From NCBI GenBank assembly GCA_003279605.1, contig QCHF01000002.1, positions 64,529 to 128,528 of the forward strand: a DNA stretch of 64,000 nt. The letters run 5' to 3'. This document shows positions 7,569-42,817 of this stretch, piece after piece. The DNA comes from SAR86 cluster bacterium AG-390-O18 (GTDB lineage Bacteria > Pseudomonadota > Gammaproteobacteria > Magnimaribacterales > AG-339-G14). The notes beneath the pieces are model-generated. The model was not told where the DNA came from, ran no database searches, and worked only from the letters and a program-made list of their open reading frames with translations. The first letter of the stretch is position 1. Every line of letters starts with the position of its first letter. Both the position numbers and the translations under genes were made by a program.

Positions 7569-8378
7569 TTAATTTTTGCTTCTTAATTTAAAAATTGCTA
7601 GCAAATTAATGCTCATACAGCACTGCAATGATTTATCTTCAAATAAATTCACATCTACTTCAATAAATTCATGGCCTTTTCTCTCATAAAAATCTTTAAC
7701 TGACATTTCAGTAATTAAAGTAGTATCCATTTGAACAGGTCTGTAATTTTGAGATTTTGTTTGCAAGTGAACCCACGGATTCATAAATGCATTGCCTGCC
7801 AAAATCCAATTTGAACAGCCAAGTAAAAAACATAAATTTGCATAGCCAACTTCATTTGGCTGTAAAAGTTTAGGTAATTTCTTTTCGTTAGAAAGATATA
7901 TTAGTGGTTTATCGCCTCCCCAATAGAATTTGAAAGCTTTACAACCTTCTTTTTTTAACTTTTCCCAGACCGTAAACGAAGCAACTGGAGCTTTATAATT
8001 CTCTTGAACTATAGGATCACCTCTATAGATAGGTTCTGGCATTGAATCTTTTAAAAGCTTAGATTCTGCATTAGCTATAATTTTTCCTTCTTGATTTTTT
8101 AAAAAAGTATTTATTTGACCTTCCTTAAAATCTTCTGAATAAACCTCAAAAGTTTCTCCATCATAAAGCGGAGAGGTTATTTTGCAGTTGGCATATCCCC
8201 TCTCAAGCCATGATTTTCCCAGTAATTCAATTACCGGATGGAGTAAATATGCTGAAACTGTTACTCCAGGGACTAGTCCACCTTTAAAGCCATACTCTTT
8301 TGCCAGTTCATCGCTATGAATTTGATTTTCAGAATCCGGAGCTGTATTTAAAGCAGTTGCTTGCCAATTCATAATCAA
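7569..8378 (-). CDS. Double hotdog-fold protein (two MaoC-dehydratase-like halves), function unknown
   Basis: The N-terminal half has ENQIHSDELAKEYGFKGGLVPG, a degenerate hydratase-2 motif. The C-terminal half has NAFMNPWVHLQT. It is the last gene of a 3-gene minus-strand operon with 2-nt gaps. Confidence 0.5.
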   Translation of the reverse strand: MIMNWQATALNTAPDSENQIHSDELAKEYGFKGGLVPGVTVSAYLLHPVIELLGKSWLERGYANCKITSPLYDGETFEVYSEDFKEGQINTFLKNQEGKIIANAESKLLKDSMPEPIYRGDPIVQENYKAPVASFTVWEKLKKEGCKAFKFYWGGDKPLIYLSNEKKLPKLLQPNEVGYANLCFLLGCSNWILAGNAFMNPWVHLQTKSQNYRPVQMDTTLITEMSVKDFYERKGHEFIEVDVNLFEDKSLQCCMSINLLAIFKLRSKN

Positions 8379-8380
8379 AT

Positions 8381-9217
8381 CTACTTGAGTATTTTCCTCT
8401 GTTTAAAATATAGTACAAATCCTAAAGCGATAGGCCAGCTTCCTAAGACAAATTCACCAATAAAAATCTGATTAAAGCCTGTACCGTGCGCATAAATTGC
8501 AACGAGATTGAATATCCCTGCTCCGATGTAAATCATTCCAGCTGAGAAAAACCAAACTGGATTTAAAGTAACCACCCCAAGAATAGAAAATAAAAACGTG
8601 GCTACAAAAAAAGAAGTAAAGTCTCTCAAAAGAGCATTTTGTGCATCTGAGGTTAATTCATTTAAAACAAACCCAAAATCTGCTGCAGCAATTATTGGGG
8701 TGAATACCCAATTAAGTACTAAGCCCAAAAGGAAGTAGGCATAAAATATCCCTAGAAATCTTATGATGAAAGTGTAGTTCTTTTCCTCTGAAATTAATTT
8801 GAAGTAAAAATAACCGCCTAGAAATCCTGCTACCCAATGTAAAATTTTTCCTAACAAAGTTCTGTTACCGCCTAGCAATTGAGTTTGGAATAATAATTCC
8901 ACCATCAAGATAAGGGCCGTTCCAATTGCTACAGAGCCAGCTACAGCATAAAGGTATTTACCTCCTAAGACACTGTATTTTGAAATCAATCCAGCTAAGG
9001 TGAAAGCAACTGTAAAACCAATGATTATTACTCCAAACAGGGCAATCCCTAACCTTTGAAAATCAAATAAAATAACCTCTAAAGATGAAATTAATCCTAC
9101 TGGCATATCAACAGAGGCAAGCCAAATTAAATTAGACACTGATGAAATTGGTGTCATCAACATTACCGTAAAGAGAGCTGCAGACAGAACTGCGAATGGA
9201 TATTTTGCTATTCTCAT
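8381..9217 (-). CDS. Polytopic inner-membrane protein (about 8 TM), no family recognised
   Basis: The ORF is uniformly hydrophobic with Gly/Phe/Leu/Ile-rich segments. It lies 2 nt from both flanking genes. Confidence 0.6.
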   Translation of the reverse strand: MRIAKYPFAVLSAALFTVMLMTPISSVSNLIWLASVDMPVGLISSLEVILFDFQRLGIALFGVIIIGFTVAFTLAGLISKYSVLGGKYLYAVAGSVAIGTALILMVELLFQTQLLGGNRTLLGKILHWVAGFLGGYFYFKLISEEKNYTFIIRFLGIFYAYFLLGLVLNWVFTPIIAAADFGFVLNELTSDAQNALLRDFTSFFVATFLFSILGVVTLNPVWFFSAGMIYIGAGIFNLVAIYAHGTGFNQIFIGEFVLGSWPIALGFVLYFKQRKILK

Positions 9218-9219
9218 AA

Positions 9220-10302
9220 TTATTCCGGTAAAACTTTTATTAACTTTCCTCTTGGCCCATCGGTCAAGAGATAAATAAATCCATTTGGTGAAGCTTGAAT
9301 ATTTCTAAGTCTAGAATTCAACTTTGTAAAAAGACTTTCTTGATTGTCTTTTCCAGTTTGAGAAAAAGTAACTTTTTTAACATCTTTGGAAACCAAAGCT
9401 GTTACTAAAAAACTATTTTTCAATTCTGGATATTTATTGCCTTCATAAAAAATCATATCAGAGGGAGCAATTGATGGTGTCCAGTGTAATATAGGTTGTT
9501 CCATACCAGCTTTCTCAGTAAAAGGACTTATGACTGCTCCGGAATAATCTATGCCATAAGTAATTGCAGGCCAGCCATAGTTAAGAGACGGTTTAATCAG
9601 ATTCATTTCATCTCCGCCCCTTGGTCCATGTTCATGCTCATATATTTCACCAGTTTTTGTAACAATCAATCCTTGTTGGTTTCTGTGCCCATATGAGTAA
9701 ATGTCCGGCAGAGCATTCGCCAAGTTAACAAATGGATTATCAGATGGAATTGTTCCATCTTTATTTATTCTGACTATTTTTCCAAAATGATTATCTAAAG
9801 TTTGTGCTTTTTCTCGATGATCAAATCCATCTCCACTAGCTAGTAAGATTGTTCCATCATTTAAAAAAGCAATTTTGGCGCCTAGGTGAACGGGAATTCT
9901 TCTTGGCGCTTTTGCTTCAAAAATTACCTTTGTCTTTTCAAGAGAATCTTTATTCAATACGGCGGACATTAAATACAGCGTTGATTTTCCATCTGAATTA
10001 CGTGCTGAATAACTAAGGTATATTAATTTGTTTGAAGCAAAGTCTGGATCAAGTACAACTTCCGAGAGACCGCCTTGACTGCTGTATTGAACCTTTGGCA
10101 CATTTTTAATCTGTGTGATAGAACCATCTATCAAATTTGCAATTTTCAGCTTGCCTGGCATTTCGGTATAAATGATCTCGTCTTCGCTTAAAAACTCTAA
10201 GCTCCAAGCATCATCTAAGCCACTCAGAACTGTTTCAAACTTATAATCTGAAAAAAGACTTGTTGAAAAATATAAAACAAATAAAAAGTATTTGGCTCTC
10301 AT
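9220..10302 (-). CDS. PQQ-dependent soluble sugar dehydrogenase-like beta-propeller (YliI/sGDH family), secreted
   Basis: Has a signal peptide, and the motifs SYGHRNQQGL and HEHGPRGGDEMN are typical of the glucose/sorbosone dehydrogenase family. Confidence 0.7.
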   Translation of the reverse strand: MRAKYFLFVLYFSTSLFSDYKFETVLSGLDDAWSLEFLSEDEIIYTEMPGKLKIANLIDGSITQIKNVPKVQYSSQGGLSEVVLDPDFASNKLIYLSYSARNSDGKSTLYLMSAVLNKDSLEKTKVIFEAKAPRRIPVHLGAKIAFLNDGTILLASGDGFDHREKAQTLDNHFGKIVRINKDGTIPSDNPFVNLANALPDIYSYGHRNQQGLIVTKTGEIYEHEHGPRGGDEMNLIKPSLNYGWPAITYGIDYSGAVISPFTEKAGMEQPILHWTPSIAPSDMIFYEGNKYPELKNSFLVTALVSKDVKKVTFSQTGKDNQESLFTKLNSRLRNIQASPNGFIYLLTDGPRGKLIKVLPE

Positions 10303-10395: not shown

Positions 10396-11616
10396 ATGAA
10401 TTTTGAACATACTCCAAAGGTTAAAGAATTAATCAATGAGGTCTCCAACTTCATGGATGAAAATATATATCCTGCTGAAGAGATATATGCGAATGAAATG
10501 AAAGCCTTTCGAGATACTGGTAATCCCTGGCAAGTTCCTAAAGTAATAGAAGAATTAAAGCTTAAAGCAAAAAAACAAGGTTTATGGAATTTTTTCTTAC
10601 CTGAAAGTGAAAGTGGTTTTGGCTTAACTAATTTGGAATATGCTCCTCTAGCAGAGATTATGGGCAAAGTGAGCTTTGCCTCAGAAATTTTTAATTGTTC
10701 TGCGCCAGATACTGGGAATATGGAGGTATTAGATAAGTTTGGTTCTGACTTTCAAAAAGAAAAATGGTTACAACCTCTTTTAAAAGGCGAAATCAGGTCG
10801 GCCTTTGCAATGACGGAACCAAAAGTAGCTTCTTCTGATGCTACCAATATAGAAAGTAAGATAGAAGAGGATGGGGATGAATATGTAATAAATGGAGAAA
10901 AATGGTGGACTTCCGGATTTGGTAGGCCTGATTGCAAAGTGATGATTTTTATGGGAGTTACGAACCCAGACAATCCTAAGCACCAAAGACAGTCTCAAAT
11001 ACTTATTCCTACAGACGCTAAAGGTATTAAAAACCTTAGAATGTTAAGTGTTTATGGAGCAGATCACGCGCCAAATGGGCATGCTCATCTTAAATTTTCT
11101 GATGTTAGAGTTCCCAAGGAAAACTTAATTTTAGGAGAAGGTAGGGGTTTTGAAATAGCCCAAGGTAGACTTGGGCCTGGTAGGATTCATCACTGCATGA
11201 GAATCATAGGAATTGCAGAAAGAGCATTAGATTTGCTGTGTAAACGCTCTCTTAATAGGAAAGCTTTTGGCAAACCTCTGGCTGAACTGGGTGGAAACTA
11301 TGATGTAATCGCTGACTGTAGAATTGAGATAGAAATGTGTAGATTGATGACTCTTAAGGCAGCTCATATGATGGATACAGCTGGGAACAAAATAGCAAAA
11401 AGTGAAATTGCTCAGATTAAAGTTGCTATTCCTTTAATGGCAACCAGAGTTATTGATAAAGCTATTCAGATTCATGGAGGTGCAGGTGTTTCTCAAGATA
11501 CGCCTTTAGCTAGCTTATATGCTTCTGTGAGATTTTTAAGAATTGGAGATGGTCCAGACGAAGTGCATAGACGAACAGTTGCTAGGTATGAATTGGGTAA
11601 ACACGAAAACTTATAA
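10396..11616 (+). CDS. Acyl-CoA dehydrogenase, FadE2 / ACAD10-ACAD11 C-terminal-domain type
   Basis: The N-terminus [12 protein letters not shown]...[29 protein letters not shown] and the C-terminal [10 protein letters not shown] are hallmarks of this ACAD subgroup. I prefer the ATG at 10396 over the TTG at 10378. Confidence 0.8.
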
Positions 11617-11633
11617 AGGCTATAATTCGCTTA

Positions 11634-12161
11634 ATGTTAGATTTTAAAGAACAAAACTGCGATCTTACTCTTGCTGAAGGGCTGGAGATTTATTTAAGTT
11701 ATTTGAAAGAAAATAATAAAAAAATTGGTACAGATGGATTTGATGATGATTATAAAATCTGGCAATGTCATGACTGTACCCATGTCATTTTTGGTAATGG
11801 TATAACTTTTGAAGAAGAATCCATTAATGATTTGCATGGTCTTATTTTGTGTTCTTATAAGTGGAAAGATTATCTTGCCTACTTTGACGACCCTTTTTTG
11901 AAAAATCATATGAAGTATTTATGGAAAGAAGTTGGTCTTAAAAAGACAATTATTTCGATGTTTAATATATATAAATCTATTTTTGGAATTTTAAAAATGA
12001 GATTTAAAATGAAGAAAAAATGGCCTTTAAAAGTTCCTGACTCTTACTTGGACAGAAAAATTTGTGATCTCAGAGAAGAGTATGGGATAAAAATACTTTC
12101 AGAAAGCCAAAGACCTAGGAAGTTTATTGAATGGTCTGGAGCTATCAAAAATCCTAAATAA
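11634..12161 (+). CDS. Hypothetical protein with Coq4-like HDxxH-x11-E motif (paralog A)
   Basis: HDCTHVIFGNGITFEEE at nt 11769-11819. It aligns along its full length with the next ORF. Confidence 0.6.
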   Translation: MLDFKEQNCDLTLAEGLEIYLSYLKENNKKIGTDGFDDDYKIWQCHDCTHVIFGNGITFEEESINDLHGLILCSYKWKDYLAYFDDPFLKNHMKYLWKEVGLKKTIISMFNIYKSIFGILKMRFKMKKKWPLKVPDSYLDRKICDLREEYGIKILSESQRPRKFIEWSGAIKNPK

Positions 12162-12176
12162 AACTTACTCGATACT

Positions 12177-12707
12177 ATGTTGAGTTATCAAAATGAATAC
12201 TGCGATATAGCCCTAAGAGAAGGCATCGATGAATATCGTGATTATTTAAAGAAAAATAACCGCCATGTTTTGGGTGAAAATTGCTCTGAAGATGAAAAAC
12301 TTACTATTTTAGGTCACGATGCAACCCATGTGATTTTTGGTTTGGACACTTCTTTGGAGGAAGAAGCCATGCTGGACTGCTGGGTAATTTTTGGTGGAGA
12401 CGTCTTTAAGGTTATTAAAGAATATTATAAAGGTTCTTTGGATTTAAAAAAAACAAATGAAAAGGTTTATGATCTTGTCAAGGAAGTTGGATATTTAAAA
12501 TACACTTATCTGTACTTAAGAGTGATATTCCAAAAATGGCCAAAGATTTTTTTCAGAACCAAAAAGATGAAAAAATGGTCTTATTTTTTTCCTTCAGATT
12601 TTCTTGAAAAGAAAATCTCAACTCTCAGAGAAGACTTCAATATAAAAATTCTTTCACCTGAAGAAAGAAAAATGAAGAAAATTTCTTGGCAAAGGGCTAT
12701 TTCCTAA
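12177..12707 (+). CDS. Hypothetical protein with Coq4-like HDxxH-x11-E motif (paralog B)
   Basis: HDATHVIFGLDTSLEEE at nt 12315-12365. It is a tandem paralog of the previous ORF. Confidence 0.6.
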   Translation: MLSYQNEYCDIALREGIDEYRDYLKKNNRHVLGENCSEDEKLTILGHDATHVIFGLDTSLEEEAMLDCWVIFGGDVFKVIKEYYKGSLDLKKTNEKVYDLVKEVGYLKYTYLYLRVIFQKWPKIFFRTKKMKKWSYFFPSDFLEKKISTLREDFNIKILSPEERKMKKISWQRAIS

Positions 12708-12784
12708 TAAATTCACTTTCTTAATAATATTTTCGCTTGACAAGTATGCTACTTTGAAAGGTGAAGATTAAATTGAGGTGAAAA

Positions 12785-13996
12785 ATGCAAAATGCTTTGT
12801 CTAGAAAGCTTCCTGTAACCGTGCTTTCAGGTTTTTTAGGTGCAGGAAAAACTACGGTTTTAAGTCATATCTTAAATAATAGAGAAAATAAAAAGGTTGC
12901 TGTCATTGTAAATGACATGAGTGAAATTAATATTGACGCCGAAATTATTAAAAATGAAATTTCTCTTAACAGAAGTGAAGAAAAACTCGTTGAAATGAGT
13001 AATGGCTGTATTTGTTGTACTCTCAGAGAAGATTTACTCAAAGAAGTAACCAATCTAGCTAATCAGGGACGTTTTGATTATTTAGTTATCGAATCTACTG
13101 GTATTTCCGAACCTTTGCCGGTTGCAGAAACATTCACATTTGCTGATGAAAATGGGATTTCTTTATCTAATGTTGCTGATTTAGATACCATGGTAACAGT
13201 TGTAGATGCAGTAAATTTCCTAAAAGATTATGAAGAAGCAAAATATCTTAAAGATAAGGGAGAGTCTTTAGGAGAAGACGACGAAAGGAGCGTAGCGGAC
13301 TTATTAGTTGATCAGGTCGAATTTGCAGACTTAATTCTGATAAGTAAAACAGATCTTATTAATCACCAAACCTTAAAAAAACTTGTCGCCATTATTAAAA
13401 CTTTAAACACGAAAGCTAAAATTGTTCCTATTATCAATGGTGAAGTTGAATTAGATAAGGTGTTAAACACCGGTTTGTTTGATTTTGAAGAGGCTCAAAA
13501 AGCTCCTGGTTGGCTTAAGGAAATGCGAGGGGAGCACATTCCTGAAACCGAGGAGTATGGCATTTCTAGTTTTAGCTACGAAGCAAGAAAACCTTTCCAT
13601 CCAGAAAAATTTCTAAACTTTTTACATTCAACTCAAAAGTTTGGAAAACTTATTAGGTCTAAGGGTTTTTTCTGGCTTGCTACCCGACCTGAATTTGCCG
13701 GACAATGGAGTCAAGCGGGAGGAATTGCGCATTATGGGTTTGCAGGTATGTTTTGGAAAGCTGTACCTGAAAAAGATTGGCCTCAAGATGAAGAATATCT
13801 TTCTTCAATAAAGGAACAATGGGTTGAACCATTCGGGGACATGCGACAAGAGTTAGTTTTTATTGGACAACATCTTGATAAAGAAAAAATGATTAAATCT
13901 CTTGATGAATGTCTTCTAACAGAAGATGAAGTTCTCAAAGGAAGAGAATATTGGGAATCTCTTAATGATCCATTTCCTGCATGGAATGAAAGTTAA
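12785..13996 (+). CDS. COG0523-family G3E GTPase (CobW/YjiA/ZigA-type metallochaperone)
   Basis: Has P-loop GFLGAGKTT, the metal-binding [10 protein letters not shown] (CxCC) motif, ESTGISEP and SKTDL, plus the C-terminal CobW_C-like domain. Confidence 0.85.
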
Positions 13997-14618
13997 AAAA
14001 GGATTAGTGAAAGCAATTTTTAGTAAAAGCTTCTGTGACTTTGAGAATCTTGTCTCAGAGGAAGTTGAAGTTGTGGGAGTCTTACCTGTTAAATCTGAAG
14101 AGATAATTTCATTTGCAAAAAAGGTAGCCGAGAACAAACAAAACCTTGAATTGGAATTTTTTTATTCTTTGAATCAGAATAAGAAATTAGAAAGTTTTTT
14201 TTCAAAATCTTTAGATATCGATGATGTCTCTTTGATTGCAAACCATATGATAGAGGTTAGTAAAATTTTAAGAAAACTTACAGATTGTAAAAAAGTAAAC
14301 ATAAAATTAACTTCCTTAAGATCTCCGATGTGTCCTATCTTTCACGTTGACAATATTCCATGTAGGTTTTTGGTAACTCTCTATGGATTAGGTACAGAGT
14401 GGATTGCCCATGATGAAGTTGATTGGAAAATTTTTGAAAAAAAGGATTCAAAAGAAGCTCCACTGAAGGATACGAGAAGAATTAAAAATTTTAAAACAGG
14501 TGAATGGTGTTTACTCAAAGGGGGTTCATGGCAAGAAAATTTTAATGGGGTAGTCCACCGATCGCCTCACAAAATTGATAACAGGCTACTACTCTCAATT
14601 GATCCTGTGTTTTTTTGA
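13986..14618 (+). CDS. DUF1826-like protein
   Basis: The core [29 protein letters not shown] matches my memory of the DUF1826 signature. The ATG at 13986 overlaps the GTPase stop, whereas the track start at 13926 would overlap by 71 nt. Confidence 0.45.
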
Positions 14619-14624
14619 TTTTTT

Positions 14625-14701
<77 letters not shown>

Positions 14702-37425: not shown

Positions 37426-38501
37426 AAATTTTCTTAGTAGGCGGAGCAATAAGGGATGAGATATTAGGCATTCCTTTCAGTGAAAAAGATTGGGTTGTTG
37501 TAAATTCCTCTCACAAAGAAATGATAAAGCAAGGCTTTAAACAAGTGGGGAAAAACTTTCCAGTTTACTTACATCCCAAAACAAAAGAGGAATATGCTTT
37601 AGCCAGAAAAGAAAGAAAAACAGGAAAAGGTCATAAGAATTTTTCTTTTAATACAAAATCTGACATTTCTCTTAAAGAAGATTTAAAGAGAAGAGATATT
37701 ACAATTAATGCTATTGCTAAAGATAAATCTGGAAAATTATATGATCCTTTTGGAGGAATTAAAGATCTAAGGGATAGAAAAATAAGAATAGTTTCAAAAG
37801 CTTTCTCTGAGGATCCTTTGAGGCTTTTTAGAGTTGCAAGATTTAAGTCAAAACTTTCTGATTTAAATTTTTCAATTTCTCGACATACTTTGGAAGTTTT
37901 AAAGAAAATATCTTCAAGTAATGAAATCGATTTTCTTTCAGGAGAAAGAATTTGGGATGAAACGCAAAAGGCTCTTGGTTATAAAAATTCAAGTAAATAT
38001 TTTTCCACTTTAAAAAAAGTAGAGGCACTCAAATACTTTGATGGGCTTGAAAAGACCTACTCTAAAAATTTGAAGTTTCTTAAAAAAATGGATAAAGAAA
38101 GAAATATGGTTCTTGAAAAATGGGCGATAATTAATCTAAATTCTAGTCAGGCAGAAGTACTCGAAAAAAAGATTAGAGTACCAAATAAAATTTCAAGTTT
38201 TAGAAAAACTCTTAATGAAATTTTTCAATTAATTAAAAATAAAAATATTAACGAAAAAAAACTTTTATCTAGCATAAATGGTATGAACTTTTTTAGAAAC
38301 GAAACGAATTTGTTAAATTCGTTAAATTTACTTCAAAGATTAAAAATAATTTCATCTGAAAAAAATAAAAATTGGAAATCTCTCTTAAATAATCTAAAAA
38401 AAATCAAAGTCAAAACTTCTGGCTTAAGTGCTAAAGAAATTAAAGAAAAAATTTTTCATGAGAGATTAAAAGTAATAAAGGATAATAAAAATGACTTATA
38501 A
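37422..38501 (+). CDS. cca: CCA tRNA nucleotidyltransferase (class II head domain; no HD motif in the tail)
   Basis: LVGGAIRDEILG, DWVV and RRDITINA..D are conserved. The C-terminal half is Lys/Asn-rich and contains no HD dipeptide at all. Confidence 0.8.
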   Translation: MKIFLVGGAIRDEILGIPFSEKDWVVVNSSHKEMIKQGFKQVGKNFPVYLHPKTKEEYALARKERKTGKGHKNFSFNTKSDISLKEDLKRRDITINAIAKDKSGKLYDPFGGIKDLRDRKIRIVSKAFSEDPLRLFRVARFKSKLSDLNFSISRHTLEVLKKISSSNEIDFLSGERIWDETQKALGYKNSSKYFSTLKKVEALKYFDGLEKTYSKNLKFLKKMDKERNMVLEKWAIINLNSSQAEVLEKKIRVPNKISSFRKTLNEIFQLIKNKNINEKKLLSSINGMNFFRNETNLLNSLNLLQRLKIISSEKNKNWKSLLNNLKKIKVKTSGLSAKEIKEKIFHERLKVIKDNKNDL

Positions 38502-39213
38502 AACTGCCTTAATAACCGGAGGAGCAATTAGAATTGGCAAAGATATTTGCAAAAAGCTTCATGGAAACGGTTACAACATTATTTGTCATTACAATAAATC
38601 AGAAAATGAAGCAAAAGATCTTAAATCTGAATTAAACAAATTAAGAGAAAATAGTTGTGAAATTTTTTGCTTAGATCTTAATGATTTTGAGCAAGTAGAA
38701 GAGCTCGTAAACAAGATTAGCAATAATTTTAATTCTCTGGACGTTTTGGTAAATAACGCTTCTTCTTTTTTTAAAACAGATATAGAAAATCATGATGATT
38801 CTGATTGGGATGACCTAATTAACTCAAATTTACGAGGTCCGTTTTTGTTATCAAGGCACTGCAAAAAAATGCTGTCAAAATCTAATGGGTTAATAATTAA
38901 TATATCTGATGCGATGGTCAACAGAGGAATGAAAAATTATGTTATTTACTCTATAGCAAAAGCAGGACTTGAAAATTTAACCAAAACTCTTGCACGTGAG
39001 TTTGCTCCTGAAGTGAGAGTAAATGCCGTTGCTCCCGGCGCAATATTGTTGCCATCAGACGGCTCATCTGAAGAACAAGAACTGCTAAATGAAATTCCTT
39101 TGAATAGAATAGGAACAGAAAGAGATATTTCTGAGGCAGTAGTTGGATTGACTAAATTTTCCTACGTTACCGGTCAGATATTAAAAATTGATGGCGGCAG
39201 ATCTTTAAATTGA
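38491..39213 (+). CDS. SDR of the pteridine reductase / FolM type
   Basis: Has TGGAIRIG, which is TGxxxRxG rather than the classical TGxxxGxG, plus NNAS and the catalytic YSIAK. Confidence 0.6.
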   Translation: MTYKTALITGGAIRIGKDICKKLHGNGYNIICHYNKSENEAKDLKSELNKLRENSCEIFCLDLNDFEQVEELVNKISNNFNSLDVLVNNASSFFKTDIENHDDSDWDDLINSNLRGPFLLSRHCKKMLSKSNGLIINISDAMVNRGMKNYVIYSIAKAGLENLTKTLAREFAPEVRVNAVAPGAILLPSDGSSEEQELLNEIPLNRIGTERDISEAVVGLTKFSYVTGQILKIDGGRSLN

Positions 39214-39240
39214 TGTATATTTACTTTTTTTGAGAAAAGC

Positions 39241-40290
39241 ATGAATAGTAAATTCAAAGGGGAATATTCAGGTACAAAAAATGTATCAGAAAGACATGAG
39301 ATTGATCAAAACAAGCTTCAAGAATATCTCAATGACAAATTAGAAAACTTTGGAGACATAAATTCAATTGAAGAATTCGTTGGAGGGCAATCCAATCCTA
39401 CTTACCTTTTAAAAACTCAAAGAGAATCTTATGTCTTAAGAAGAAAACCTCCAGGGAAGCTTTTGAAATCTGCTCACGCAGTCGATAGAGAATACAAAGT
39501 AATTGCTGCCTTGAATAAAACTGATGTTCCGGTTCCAAAAGCCTACATACATTGTGAAGATGAGTCGGTCATTGGCACGGAATTCTTCCTGATGAGTTTT
39601 GTAGATGGAGAAGTAATGTGGGAGCCTCATATTCCACAAGCATCCTATGAAGAAAGACAAAAGATTTATCGTTCTATGAACGAAACAATTGCAATGTTAC
39701 ACAGTGTTGATCATGAAAGTATTGGGCTAGAAACTTTCGGAAAACCTGGAAATTATGTAGGTAGACAAGTTGCACGATGGTCTAAACAATATGTGGCATC
39801 GGAAACTAGAGAAATAAAATCTATGAACAATCTTATGGAATGGTTGCCAAAAAACCTCCCTGCTGAAAAAGCTACAAAACTTGTTCATGGTGACTTTAGT
39901 TTAAGCAACGTCATGATTGACTTAAAAACTTTTAAAATTTGCGCGATATTAGACTGGGAGCTTTCCACGCTTGGTGATCCTGCTGCAGATTTTAGTTATC
40001 ACTGTATTCAATATAAGTTAAATCCAGTTTTATCGGATGAAAAACAATGCAAAGATTTAGGTATTCCTACTGAAATGGAATATTTAGAAATGTATGAAGA
40101 GAAAACTGGTTATGAAATTAAACCGGAGTGGAATTTGTACATGGGTTTTAACTTATTTAAGTTAGCAGCAATCAGTCAAGGAATTATGGGCAGAGTCAGA
40201 GACGGAACTGCAGCAGGTAAAAATGCTGACTCTTTTGGTGAAAATGCCGTTATGATGGCTGATGAAGCTTGGAAATTAATTAACGAGTGA
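39241..40290 (+). CDS. Phosphotransferase-family kinase (APH fold; ACAD10/11 N-terminal-domain / LvaA-like)
   Basis: Has the catalytic loop HGDFSLSNVMID and the metal-binding ILDWELSTLGDP. FVGGQSNPTYLL is typical of the ACAD10/11-associated kinase group. Confidence 0.7.
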   Translation: MNSKFKGEYSGTKNVSERHEIDQNKLQEYLNDKLENFGDINSIEEFVGGQSNPTYLLKTQRESYVLRRKPPGKLLKSAHAVDREYKVIAALNKTDVPVPKAYIHCEDESVIGTEFFLMSFVDGEVMWEPHIPQASYEERQKIYRSMNETIAMLHSVDHESIGLETFGKPGNYVGRQVARWSKQYVASETREIKSMNNLMEWLPKNLPAEKATKLVHGDFSLSNVMIDLKTFKICAILDWELSTLGDPAADFSYHCIQYKLNPVLSDEKQCKDLGIPTEMEYLEMYEEKTGYEIKPEWNLYMGFNLFKLAAISQGIMGRVRDGTAAGKNADSFGENAVMMADEAWKLINE

Positions 40291-40297
40291 GGTAAAA

Positions 40298-40780
40298 ATG
40301 TCAAAAATAAAAATGCCAGTCGAAAAAAGTCACATCATGATGTTTGCAAGGTCAATTGGAGATGCAAATCCTAAATATTACGAAGAAAAAGATGAAAATG
40401 TTATTGCACCTCCTACTTTCATTCAATCTAGTGCTCAATTTGATCCTGAATATTTTTTAAGACCAAAAATTGGTGGTGACAATTGGTTTGGGTCTGGAAA
40501 AGAAGCTACAGGAATGAAATCATCGGGTTCTGGCTCTGGGGGTGGTGGAGCAGCAATGGGTCTTCATGCCGAACAGCATTACGAGTACCACCAACCTTTG
40601 AACGTTGGAGATGTTATTACCGCTGAAGTTAAACCAGGAAAATCTTGGGAAAAAGAAAGCAAAAGAGCTGGTAAATTAAAGTTTAGTGAAAGTGTAACCG
40701 AATACAGAAATCAAGATGGTGAGCTCATCATCACTGCAACTTCTGTTGGCGTGGTTACAGAAAAACCTGTAGAAAATTAG
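40298..40780 (+). CDS. MaoC-N-like hotdog subunit (non-catalytic partner of a heteromeric hydratase)
   Basis: FARSIGDANPKYY replaces the catalytic D..NP.H. It has a Gly/Ser-rich loop and is adjacent to a canonical MaoC subunit. Confidence 0.6.
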   Translation: MSKIKMPVEKSHIMMFARSIGDANPKYYEEKDENVIAPPTFIQSSAQFDPEYFLRPKIGGDNWFGSGKEATGMKSSGSGSGGGGAAMGLHAEQHYEYHQPLNVGDVITAEVKPGKSWEKESKRAGKLKFSESVTEYRNQDGELIITATSVGVVTEKPVEN

Positions 40781-40789
40781 GAGAAGGAT

Positions 40790-41206
40790 ATGTTGAAGAA
40801 AAATGAAATTAAAATTGGAGATACTTATTCTGAGAAAATTGTAGAAGATTTGAAGAGAACTCAAATTGTACAGTATGCTGGAGCATCTGGTGATTACAAC
40901 CCTCTCCATTCTGATGATAAATTCACTAAAGAAATTGCCGGTTATCCAGGTGTCTTTGCCCATGGAATGTTATCAATGGGAATGACGGGTAAGATGCTTA
41001 CAAACTTTGTTGGTGACGGCACGCTTAAAAAATATGGTGTTCGTTTTACCAATCAAGTTTGGCCTGGAGATTCTTTAGAAAGCACTGCAACAATCATAGA
41101 TATCAAAGAAGAGGATGGCGAAACCCTTGCTGAGATTGCTATCGAAACAAAGAATCAAGACGGTGCTACTGTTATTACTGGCTCTGCTACTGCAAAAGTA
41201 GGTTAA
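40790..41206 (+). CDS. MaoC-like (R)-specific enoyl-CoA hydratase subunit
   Basis: Carries the hydratase-2 motif YAGASGDYNPLHSDDKFTKEIAGYPGVFAHGM. Confidence 0.75.
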   Translation: MLKKNEIKIGDTYSEKIVEDLKRTQIVQYAGASGDYNPLHSDDKFTKEIAGYPGVFAHGMLSMGMTGKMLTNFVGDGTLKKYGVRFTNQVWPGDSLESTATIIDIKEEDGETLAEIAIETKNQDGATVITGSATAKVG

Positions 41207-41218
41207 TAAATAAGTTTT

Positions 41219-42817
41219 ATGAATAATCCTTCTATTCCAGAAGTCGGTGGCCGTAGTGCAAAATTTGCTCTTATTTTGCTTGTTATAGTTTATGTTTTTA
41301 ATTTTATAGACAGACAGATCTTAACTATCCTCGCTGAGGATTTAAAAGCAGACTTAAATATCTCTGACAGTGACATTGGATTCTTGTATGGAACAGCTTT
41401 TGCAGTCTTTTACTCAGTTGTTGGGATCCCAATGGGTAAACTGGCTGATACTTGGAATAGAAAAAATTTAATAAGTTTAGGTTTGGCTTTTTGGAGCTTG
41501 ATGACGTTTTTATCAGGAACAGCTAAGTCCTTTTTATCATTATCAATTTACAGGTTTGGTGTTGGTATTGGAGAATCCAGCGCCTCTCCGGCATCTTACT
41601 CACTTTTATCAGACTATTTCTCTCCAAAAGTAAGAGCAACAGTATTATCGATATACGCAAGCGGCCTCTACATAGGTTCTGGGATAGGAATATTTATTGG
41701 AGGACTGATAGTAGATAATTGGAATGAAGCTTTTCCAATAATATCTGAGGCTCCCTTTGGATTAAAAGGATGGCAAGTGGCTTTTATGGCAGTTGGACTT
41801 CCAGGAATTTTACTGGCTCTAATAACATGGCAGATAAAGGAGCCACCTAGAGGTTTAAGTGAGGGCTTAACAGAAACAAAAAAAGAAAACCCCCTCAAGG
41901 CAGCTTTTGGAGAGCTAGTAGGATTAACTCCTGTTGGGCTACTTCAAGCTGAAAATGCACAAAAAGAGTTAATAAGAAATTTTGCTTTGCTAATTTTTGT
42001 TTTATCTGGTGCTTATTGGTTAATTCAAACAACTGGAGATTATTTGCAGTGGATTGCCTTTGGGATAGGTTTTTATATTGTTTGTAATTGGATTCAAGGA
42101 CTAAGAATTAGAGACAAGGTTGCTTTTGAGTTAATGTTCAAAAGTAAGGCGCTATTACTTGGTCTGTTAGCTTTTCCTTTCATTACTTTTGTTACCTATG
42201 CATTGGGTGCGTTTGGTCCTGCTTTTTACATAAGAAATTTTGGCATGACAGCCTCTGAGGTTGGTGTTATCTATGGTTTGATTACTGCATTTGGATCGAT
42301 GGTAGGAGTAATTGGGGGTGGTTTTGTAGGAGATAAACTTAGAGAAAAATACGTAAATGGGAAGCTTTATTTGATTATGGCATCTGCCTTAGGTACGGCC
42401 ATTACAGGTTTAGGATTTTTGTATTCTCCTGAGGTCAATGTCTCTTTTACGTGGAAGTTTTTCTACCATGTTTCTTCAACTGCTTGGTTGGGCTGTGCTG
42501 CATCTACAGTTACCGAACTTGTTTTGCCAAGGTTAAGAGCTGTGGCAAGTGCATTTTTTATTTTAATGCTAAGCATGGGTGGATTAGCTCTTGGGCCATA
42601 TTTAACAGGCATGTTGAGTGATATTTATACAATACAATTTATTTCTGAAGGAATGAATAAATCAATCGCCGAAGCAATTGGGTTAAAACAAGCTCTTGCT
42701 CAGTCCTTGATAGTTTTATTAGTACCTATGGTTTTATTAGGTGTTGCTTGTAGATTTTTGAAAAAAGATGAAGATAATCTTTTTGCAAAAGCTAGAAATT
42801 TAGGCGAAGCTATTTAG
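41219..42817 (+). CDS. MFS transporter (Spinster-like subgroup)
   Basis: 532 aa with at least 12 hydrophobic segments. The N-terminal FIDRQILTILAEDLK and MGKLAD..NRK loop motifs are typical of this MFS group. Confidence 0.7.
   Translation: MNNPSIPEVGGRSAKFALILLVIVYVFNFIDRQILTILAEDLKADLNISDSDIGFLYGTAFAVFYSVVGIPMGKLADTWNRKNLISLGLAFWSLMTFLSGTAKSFLSLSIYRFGVGIGESSASPASYSLLSDYFSPKVRATVLSIYASGLYIGSGIGIFIGGLIVDNWNEAFPIISEAPFGLKGWQVAFMAVGLPGILLALITWQIKEPPRGLSEGLTETKKENPLKAAFGELVGLTPVGLLQAENAQKELIRNFALLIFVLSGAYWLIQTTGDYLQWIAFGIGFYIVCNWIQGLRIRDKVAFELMFKSKALLLGLLAFPFITFVTYALGAFGPAFYIRNFGMTASEVGVIYGLITAFGSMVGVIGGGFVGDKLREKYVNGKLYLIMASALGTAITGLGFLYSPEVNVSFTWKFFYHVSSTAWLGCAASTVTELVLPRLRAVASAFFILMLSMGGLALGPYLTGMLSDIYTIQFISEGMNKSIAEAIGLKQALAQSLIVLLVPMVLLGVACRFLKKDEDNLFAKARNLGEAI

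Follow-up and report, generated by a model that had tools for sequence, protein, structure and literature searches.

A ZigA–DUF1826 cassette beside a dehydrogenase gene with mini-Coq4-like genes before tRNA-Met and rpoD of a SAR86 genome

The block and its gene neighbourhood in SAR86

The stretch of DNA considered here (the window; 64,000 nucleotides (nt) of contig QCHF01000002.1 of SAR86 cluster bacterium AG-390-O18) has a low guanine plus cytosine (G+C) content of about 33% and carries, at nt 10396–14618, a block of five open reading frames (ORFs): an acyl-CoA dehydrogenase (ACAD), two small paralogous proteins termed mini-Coq4-like, a COG0523 GTPase of the ZigA type, and a DUF1826 protein. 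An earlier note on this DNA had read the five genes as a single module, in which the GTPase is a chaperone serving the Coq4-like proteins. The comparisons described below argue for a different reading, to which a probability of roughly 0.7 may be given: that the block consists of two independent units lying side by side in a strain-variable slot before tRNA-Met and rpoD, within one subclade of SAR86, each with the function proposed for it below. All five ORFs are present as the note had described them, with the same coordinates and with intergenic gaps of 17, 15 and 77 nt, and its family calls hold for the ACAD10/11-type dehydrogenase, for COG0523 and for DUF1826; the description 'Coq4-like' holds only as a remote, sub-threshold similarity. 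The features are:

10396–11616, plus strand: LvaC/ACAD11-type acyl-CoA dehydrogenase, predicted to eliminate phosphate from 4-phosphoacyl-CoA (three Pfam ACAD domains, PDB matches, residues)
11634–12161, plus strand: mini-Coq4-like paralogue 1 (small1), with HDxxH(x)11E from H46 to E62 at nt 11769–11819 (family profile)
12177–12707, plus strand: mini-Coq4-like paralogue 2 (small2), with HDxxH(x)11E from H47 to E63 at nt 12315–12365 (similarity to small1)
12708–12784, plus strand: intergenic region with the conserved element TTGACAAGTATGCTA (12737–12751), assigned to the ZigA cassette (conservation)
12785–13996, plus strand: ZigA-type COG0523 zinc metallochaperone GTPase, with Walker A at residues 19–24 and NGCICC at residues 73–78 (CICC at nt 13007–13018) (NF038288)
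13986–14618, plus strand: DUF1826 protein, with H120/D122 at nt 14343–14351 and H191 at nt 14556–14558 (PF08856)
14625–14701, minus strand: tRNA-Met (CAT), the right-hand edge of the variable slot (ARAGORN)
39241–40290, plus strand: LvaA/ACAD11-kinase-type APH phosphotransferase, outside the block (Pfam APH, 4e-51)

Downstream of the tRNA-Met lie rpoD and then dnaG. Nearest to the window is AG-404-D10 (locus L010), a SAR86 single-cell genome whose corresponding genes encode proteins 94–99% identical.

Comparison loci (designated L0xx) were fetched for 80 species-level, SAR86-type genomes carrying homologues of the small genes, each viewed over 8 kb around the gene, and were supplemented by metagenome loci around DUF1826 relatives and by contigs encoding selected homologues; the proteins of the window were placed in these loci by tblastn. 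In 45 of the 80 the small gene lies directly after engB, which encodes a ribosome-assembly GTPase, and beside polA, with neither ACAD nor ZigA present. The layout of the window (glucose/sorbosone dehydrogenase (GSDH), ACAD, small gene or genes, tRNA-Met, rpoD) is found in 11, and in the remaining 24, whose contexts are truncated or of other kinds, no partner recurs. In particular, none recurs in L021, L022, L044, L045, L056, L062, L081 and L089, where acyl-CoA genes appear occasionally and ZigA is absent. A ZigA or DUF1826 gene occurs within 8 kb of a small gene in a single locus of the 80 (L010), and this is also the sole carrier among the 11 loci arranged as ACAD–small–rpoD, the pair being missing from the slot in the other ten. 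ZigA–DUF1826 is in turn found without ACAD or small genes in L093, L095/96 and L091; in all, at least four contexts are seen besides that of the window. Because each sub-block occurs without the other, the hypothesis of a five-gene module is unsupported; co-conservation, the check on whether the chaperone and the Coq4-like proteins belong together, fails at 1/80 and 1/11 loci.

The slot itself varies between genomes. In L001–3 and L012 the order is ACAD-small1-small2-tRNA-Met-rpoD, with small2 abutting the tRNA-Met, and in L011 and L018–20 the dehydrogenase is followed by small1 alone, small2 being present or absent independently of small1. Three membrane or small ORFs lie between small1 and small2 in L013 (8525–10072) and L015 (8525–9728), and a 681-residue ORF follows small2 in L016 (9193–11238). 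The same tRNA-Met is found directly after small2 in L001 and L012, and after DUF1826 in L091, L092 and L094. The stretch from the ACAD-linked small genes to tRNA-Met is a small hypervariable islet beside tRNA-Met/rpoD, whose cargo differs by SAR86 species.

In L093, from another SAR86 lineage, the ZigA–DUF1826 pair is followed by a DUF411 gene (7687–8157) and lies about 6 kb from rpoD; past DUF411, a cluster of DAO, DUF1365 and cyclopropane-fatty-acid-synthase-like genes precedes tRNA-Met/rpoD. In the short metagenome contig L091, the pair is followed by a 72-nt variant of the tRNA-Met (2192–2263) and a gene other than rpoD, and an unrelated gene precedes it. In this contig, similarity to the window sets in 88 nt ahead of the start codon of ZigA, which is where small2 of the window ends. 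L091 may be a fifth context, or the contig may be an assembly chimera.

The more diverged locus L094 has the order ACAD-small1-ZigA-DUF1826-tRNA-Met-rpoD, with ACAD 84%, ZigA 84% and rpoD 93% identical to the window, and L090 and L092 have ACAD-small2-ZigA-DUF1826. That the ZigA cassette arrived by a recent horizontal insertion was rejected: the G+C content is native-like, and in L094, with its identical gene order, ACAD and ZigA have diverged equally (both 84% identical to the window). These findings favour an arrangement that is old and has been lost repeatedly. Most simply, the cassette was placed before tRNA-Met/rpoD long ago and has often been lost since, a pattern that is typical of an accessory trait.

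The ZigA–DUF1826 cassette

The assignment of the GTPase to COG0523, with an intact metal motif, is borne out and can be sharpened to ZigA by the NCBIfam equivalog NF038288, against which the protein scores 701.5 bits (cut-off 600) over its full length (9–398). It carries the cobW (PF02492, 2.9e-56) and CobW_C (PF07683, 5e-25) domains, and its translation has the P-loop GAGKTT at residues 19–24 and the metal motif NGCICC at residues 73–78, the N(G/S)C-phi-CC motif being taken as defined in the Chem Rev review. According to the same review, ZigA has been characterised as a Zn(II) chaperone.

The last ORF is a DUF1826 protein (PF08856, E = 1.4e-30; 107 bits against a gathering score of 22; profile positions 4–202 of 202), and PF08856 is likewise matched by all 28 aligned homologues. 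The ZigA stop codon had been described as overlapped by this ORF, and the overlap ATGAAAGTTAA does exist (ATG at 13986, ZigA stop at 13994–13996); the real start of DUF1826, however, may well lie after the stop. The MK[AS][VI]F with which the homologues begin falls, in the alignment, on a GTG in frame at 14007, and the sequence AAGGA precedes this codon; for both reasons GTG 14007, 10 nt past the ZigA stop, is favoured as the start. Whichever start holds, ZigA and DUF1826 are closely coupled.

ZigA adjoins DUF1826 in all nine DUF1826 loci examined (the window, L010 and L090–L096), with either a stop/start overlap or a gap of no more than 20 nt, and neither gene was seen there without the other. 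The two proteins have changed at very unequal rates: between the window and L093–L096, ZigA is 82–84% identical across contexts and DUF1826 only 40–46%. That DUF1826 is a recurrent neighbour of COG0523 genes, as the earlier note had stated, is confirmed by these loci and by the pair PA5535–PA5534 of Pseudomonas aeruginosa, and the link is correct but already known. In the Zur regulon of that species, PA5535 (ZigA) and PA5534 (DUF1826) are co-induced by Zn depletion, PA5534 still being called unannotated; DUF1826 is also found in Zur-regulated COG0523 clusters (Haas et al. 2009), and in Francisella it is under Zur control. The SAR86 pair resembles PA5535–PA5534 and the clusters of Haas et al. 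(2009) in that genes of these two families lie side by side in one orientation and the GTPase is of the ZigA type with NGCICC. It differs from PA5535–PA5534 in that ZigA followed by DUF1826 stands alone beside tRNA-Met and does not belong to a large operon that also holds dksA2 and another COG0523 gene; in carrying no recognisable Zur box; and in being accessory, often lost among close relatives.

The cassette appears to bring its own upstream sequence. The element TTGACAAGTATGCTA, within the 77-nt spacer, is kept upstream of ZigA in L010, L090, L091 and L092, and the diverged L094 (DUF1826 46% identical) has it as TTGACAACTATGCTA, about 50 nt upstream of the cobW start (5772). The conserved TTGACAAnTATGCTA moves together with the ZigA–DUF1826 cassette across loci, and the consensus of the upstream element across lineages is TTGACAA(G/C)TATGCTA. 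In L090–L092, it belongs to an inverted repeat, ACAAGT-N6-ACTTGT. The element could be the -35 region of a promoter or an operator for some regulator; it is not a canonical Zur box. A regulon search with TTGACAAGTATGCTA over the window returned only its own site and 3-mismatch matches at chance level. A Zur site had also been considered for the spacer: a search of the window for Zur boxes (TGTTATNNTATAACA, up to 3 mismatches) gave 20 matches against 46 expected by chance, none of them in nt 12708–12784, and no Zur-box-like palindrome was found near that interval. The promoter and terminator scan of the block gave counts equal to the shuffled expectation and is therefore uninformative; no terminator was predicted between small2 and ZigA.

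A model of DUF1826 computed with AlphaFold 2 (AF2) from the 28 homologues (predicted local distance difference test (pLDDT) 88.8, predicted template-modelling score (pTM) 0.86) gave 272 Foldseek matches in the PDB at E ≤ 1e-3. The top 50 are all 2-oxoglutarate (2OG) oxygenases or their relatives (probability 1.00, template-modelling (TM) score 0.43–0.59). Five residues, H120, D122, H191, R200 and S204, are invariant in the 28 sequences down to 39% identity; the metal ligands among them were assigned by pattern and strand position, not by superposition. An HxD...H triad plus an arginine, the basic residue for the C5 carboxylate of 2OG, is the pattern of the Fe(II)/2OG oxygenase superfamily. DUF1826 is therefore predicted to have a compact Fe(II)/2OG oxygenase fold with an HxD...H triad. 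Members such as hyoscyamine 6-hydroxylase, ACC oxidase, ethylene-forming enzyme and FIH would share with it the double-stranded beta-helix core of the model, as well as the triad and the invariant Arg nine residues past the distal His; DUF1826 differs from them in being only about 200 residues long and in having no sequence-level match to the Pfam 2OG families or to solved oxygenases. No fold or function is assigned to DUF1826 or PA5534 in the literature found that mentions either. A further step, tentative and with somewhat less than even odds, is that DUF1826 works as an Fe(II)/2OG oxygenase and that its reaction belongs to the zinc-starvation pathway of ZigA; it might, for instance, oxidise a zinc-buffering metabolite or hydroxylate a ZigA client or a ribosomal protein.

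The strict adjacency of the two genes, and their co-induction in Pseudomonas, would also be expected if DUF1826 were a dedicated client of ZigA, the GTPase loading or proof-reading the metal in the HxD...H site, and the relatives of ZigA within COG0523 do include an activator of an iron enzyme (Nha3, for nitrile hydratase; Chem Rev review). The unequal conservation of the pair (see above) is unlike what is expected of tightly co-evolving proteins, and there are no fusions among the matches listed, all of which are 161–220 residues long. Moreover, 2OG oxygenases normally take up Fe(II) unaided. With ZigA itself characterised as a chaperone of Zn(II), such a client relationship is unlikely.

The dehydrogenase and the mini-Coq4-like proteins

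The dehydrogenase is a member of the ACAD10/ACAD11/LvaC subfamily, judging from its sequence matches and residues. Its best PDB matches are 4hr3 (E = 1.4e-140) and ACAD11 (8v3u, E = 1.1e-132), with MCAD far behind at 3e-43. In the alignment to 8v3u, the stretch with mouse ACAD11 R626/H634–R637 is identical, as is DGPDEVH (D753); the ACAD10/11-specific Arg, the HCMR motif and the catalytic Asp are described in PMC12440821. The APH protein at 39241–40290, which lies 27 kb from the dehydrogenase, matches 3dxp (4e-101) and, over residues 6–335, the kinase domain of ACAD11 (E = 1.8e-71), and is a probable pathway partner of the dehydrogenase. It is part of a lipid-type cluster (38491–42817) of SDR, APH kinase, two MaoC hydratase subunits and an MFS transporter. 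The presence of an LvaA-type kinase at this distance points to 4-hydroxy-acid catabolism for the dehydrogenase, not to metal handling. Like LvaA/LvaC of the Pseudomonas putida levulinate operon and mammalian ACAD10/ACAD11, the dehydrogenase of the window has the specific Arg, HCMR and the catalytic Asp, and a kinase of the LvaA/ACAD11 type is likewise encoded in the genome; in contrast to those systems, kinase and dehydrogenase are here neither fused nor adjacent, and mini-Coq4 genes come after the dehydrogenase. Together, the two proteins resemble an LvaA/LvaC system split in two, which would serve the catabolism of 4-hydroxy acids and has no connection with metal delivery.

On the other side of the dehydrogenase, the minus strand (7569–9217) carries two ORFs of 269 and 278 residues without a Pfam family, the latter encoding a multi-pass membrane protein. 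Both are syntenic with the pyrroloquinoline quinone (PQQ)-type GSDH (9220–10302) across the clade (L010–L019, L092, L094).

The two small proteins are paralogues of each other (36% identity, E = 2e-25), and for neither was a meaningful match found in Pfam or NCBIfam at E ≤ 10. A word-based search recovered 217 relatives of the family, all of them unannotated and marine and, wherever labelled, from SAR86; an exhaustive profile search gave 497 (representatives at 50% identity). The only invariant residues in 57 diverse members are H46, D47, H50, E62 and R147, and H46-D47-x-x-H50-(x)11-E62 is exactly the COQ4 metal-binding motif, HDxxH(x)11E, which binds Zn in recombinant human COQ4 (PMC10680789). 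The putative metal-ligand motif attributed to these proteins at the outset is accordingly real and invariant in the family.

An AF2 model built from the family alignment is all-helical (pLDDT 91.3), and its top three matches among 350,542 PDB chains are bacterial Coq4-family structures (6E12 and 3MSQ), the similarity being weak (E 0.37–2.5, TM about 0.43). Searched against PDB sequences, a narrow family profile (A1) found nothing at E ≤ 10, and a broader one (A2) found the same two Coq4 structures (E = 0.0015 and 0.014), aligned on the motif. Sub-threshold matches to Pfam Coq4 (E ≤ 1, the best 5.6e-5) occur in 34 of the 57 members, no other family being matched by more than two, and they span only some 30 profile positions around the motif (approximately 124–153). 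The gathering score of Pfam Coq4 (PF05019; 22.9 bits) is not reached, and the small proteins of the window have no match to it at E ≤ 10. The family shares with COQ4 and the bacterial Coq4 proteins (PF05019; Alr8543, 6E12; Npun02000094, 3MSQ) the invariant motif and, as modelled, an all-helical fold; no PDB entry matches it better by structure or by profile, but these matches are weak. It differs from them in length (about 170 residues against a domain of about 220), in similarity that is confined to the motif region at a TM score of 0.43, and in gene context, the small genes having no link to quinone genes and lying after engB or after ACAD. 'Coq4-like' is a reasonable description if it denotes a remote, shortened relative and not membership of the family. 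By analogy with Coq4, a metal-dependent function on a hydrophobic ligand may be envisaged.

The exact spacing of the motif, the specificity of the sub-threshold Pfam matches, the two bacterial Coq4-family structures as sole PDB relatives by both fold and profile, and the occurrence of a single conserved gene in many SAR86 lineages could be taken to mean that mini-Coq4 fills the role of eukaryotic COQ4 in SAR86 ubiquinone synthesis (O2-dependent C1 decarboxylation/hydroxylation), its position beside ACAD or engB being incidental. Proteins some 50 residues shorter than the Coq4 domain, a Foldseek E of 0.37 at that TM score, and Pfam matches below the gathering score over a 30-residue region make this improbable, as does the gene context, since no ubi or ubiquinone genes were seen beside any copy inspected.

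Two further observations concern this family. The order engB - small gene - polA in L004, L036 and 43 other loci is a conserved pairing without obvious rationale, and in L004 (7423–8528) engB and the small gene overlap by one nt at stop and start (TAGTG). A distant member, P0319 (375 residues), is fused to an N-terminal TerB (tellurite-resistance) domain; this is a single case.

Interpretation of the block

In the two-unit reading, unit 1 (10396–12707) would comprise the gene of the LvaC/ACAD11-type dehydrogenase and, probably in the same transcript, mini-Coq4 in one or two copies. From the literature on ACAD10/11, the dehydrogenase would remove the phosphate from 4-phosphoacyl-CoA, allowing 4-hydroxy acids to enter beta-oxidation, and the mini-Coq4 proteins may act as metal-dependent enzymes or may bind a hydrophobic ligand. 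Unit 2 (12708–14618) would be a self-contained cassette of ZigA and DUF1826 with its own conserved upstream element. By homology, ZigA would bind Zn(II) at CICC and hand zinc to its clients using GTP when zinc is scarce. DUF1826, predicted to be a small Fe(II)/2OG oxygenase co-expressed with ZigA, would serve either as a zinc-independent enzyme of a zinc-sparing response or as a modifier in the pathway of ZigA. Within SAR86 the cassette would be accessory, old in the clade and repeatedly lost.

Several points weigh against this interpretation. The adjacency ACAD-small-ZigA-DUF1826 is kept in three lineages (window/L010, L090/L092, L094) that cover most of the divergence of the clade. All five genes lie on one strand with no predicted terminator between small2 and ZigA, so that read-through transcription, and some functional link between the units, could exist. 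The mini-Coq4 proteins are in principle plausible clients of ZigA, as their motif binds zinc in human COQ4. Genomes without ZigA in the slot might carry it elsewhere, the view being limited to 8 kb flanks. Zinc regulation of the cassette in SAR86 is extrapolated from other bacteria, and no Zur box was found. The oxygenase assignment of DUF1826 derives from a predicted model and its fold matches; no Pfam 2OG family matched the protein even at E ≤ 10, and its profile matched no solved oxygenase among PDB sequences.

The first three of these points (the preserved adjacency, the common strand with short gaps and no predicted terminator, and the invariant motif that binds Zn in recombinant human COQ4) are also what speaks for a single metal-delivery module in which, where the ocean is short of zinc, ZigA metallates both Coq4-like proteins and possibly DUF1826 as well, a proposal that is the least probable of the alternatives considered, given that ZigA is missing from 10 of 11 ACAD–small–rpoD loci and from within 8 kb in 79 of 80, that 45 of 80 small genes are engB-linked, that ZigA–DUF1826 occurs without small genes in L091, L093, L095/96 and Pseudomonas, that the slot holds unrelated cargo elsewhere, and that a conserved upstream element belongs to the cassette itself. 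The suggestion of an undescribed metal-delivery system is therefore not borne out; what is found is a known zinc-starvation pair beside a lipid-catabolism operon. As a block the arrangement is ordinary, with known kinds of genes juxtaposed in a variable slot.

The interest of the locus lies in its parts. The mini-Coq4 family, unannotated, about 170 residues in length and carrying the COQ4 metal motif, is widespread in SAR86 and undescribed; it extends to related marine Gammaproteobacteria and merits a family definition. The oxygenase prediction makes a protein long listed in the Zur regulon as of 'unknown function' open to assay and may help to find the role of ZigA; if true, a DUF1826 oxygenase would give an assayable handle on what ZigA-type chaperones serve. 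In SAR86, which rank among the most abundant marine heterotrophs, the presence of ZigA–DUF1826 could mark strain-level adaptation to zinc-poor water.

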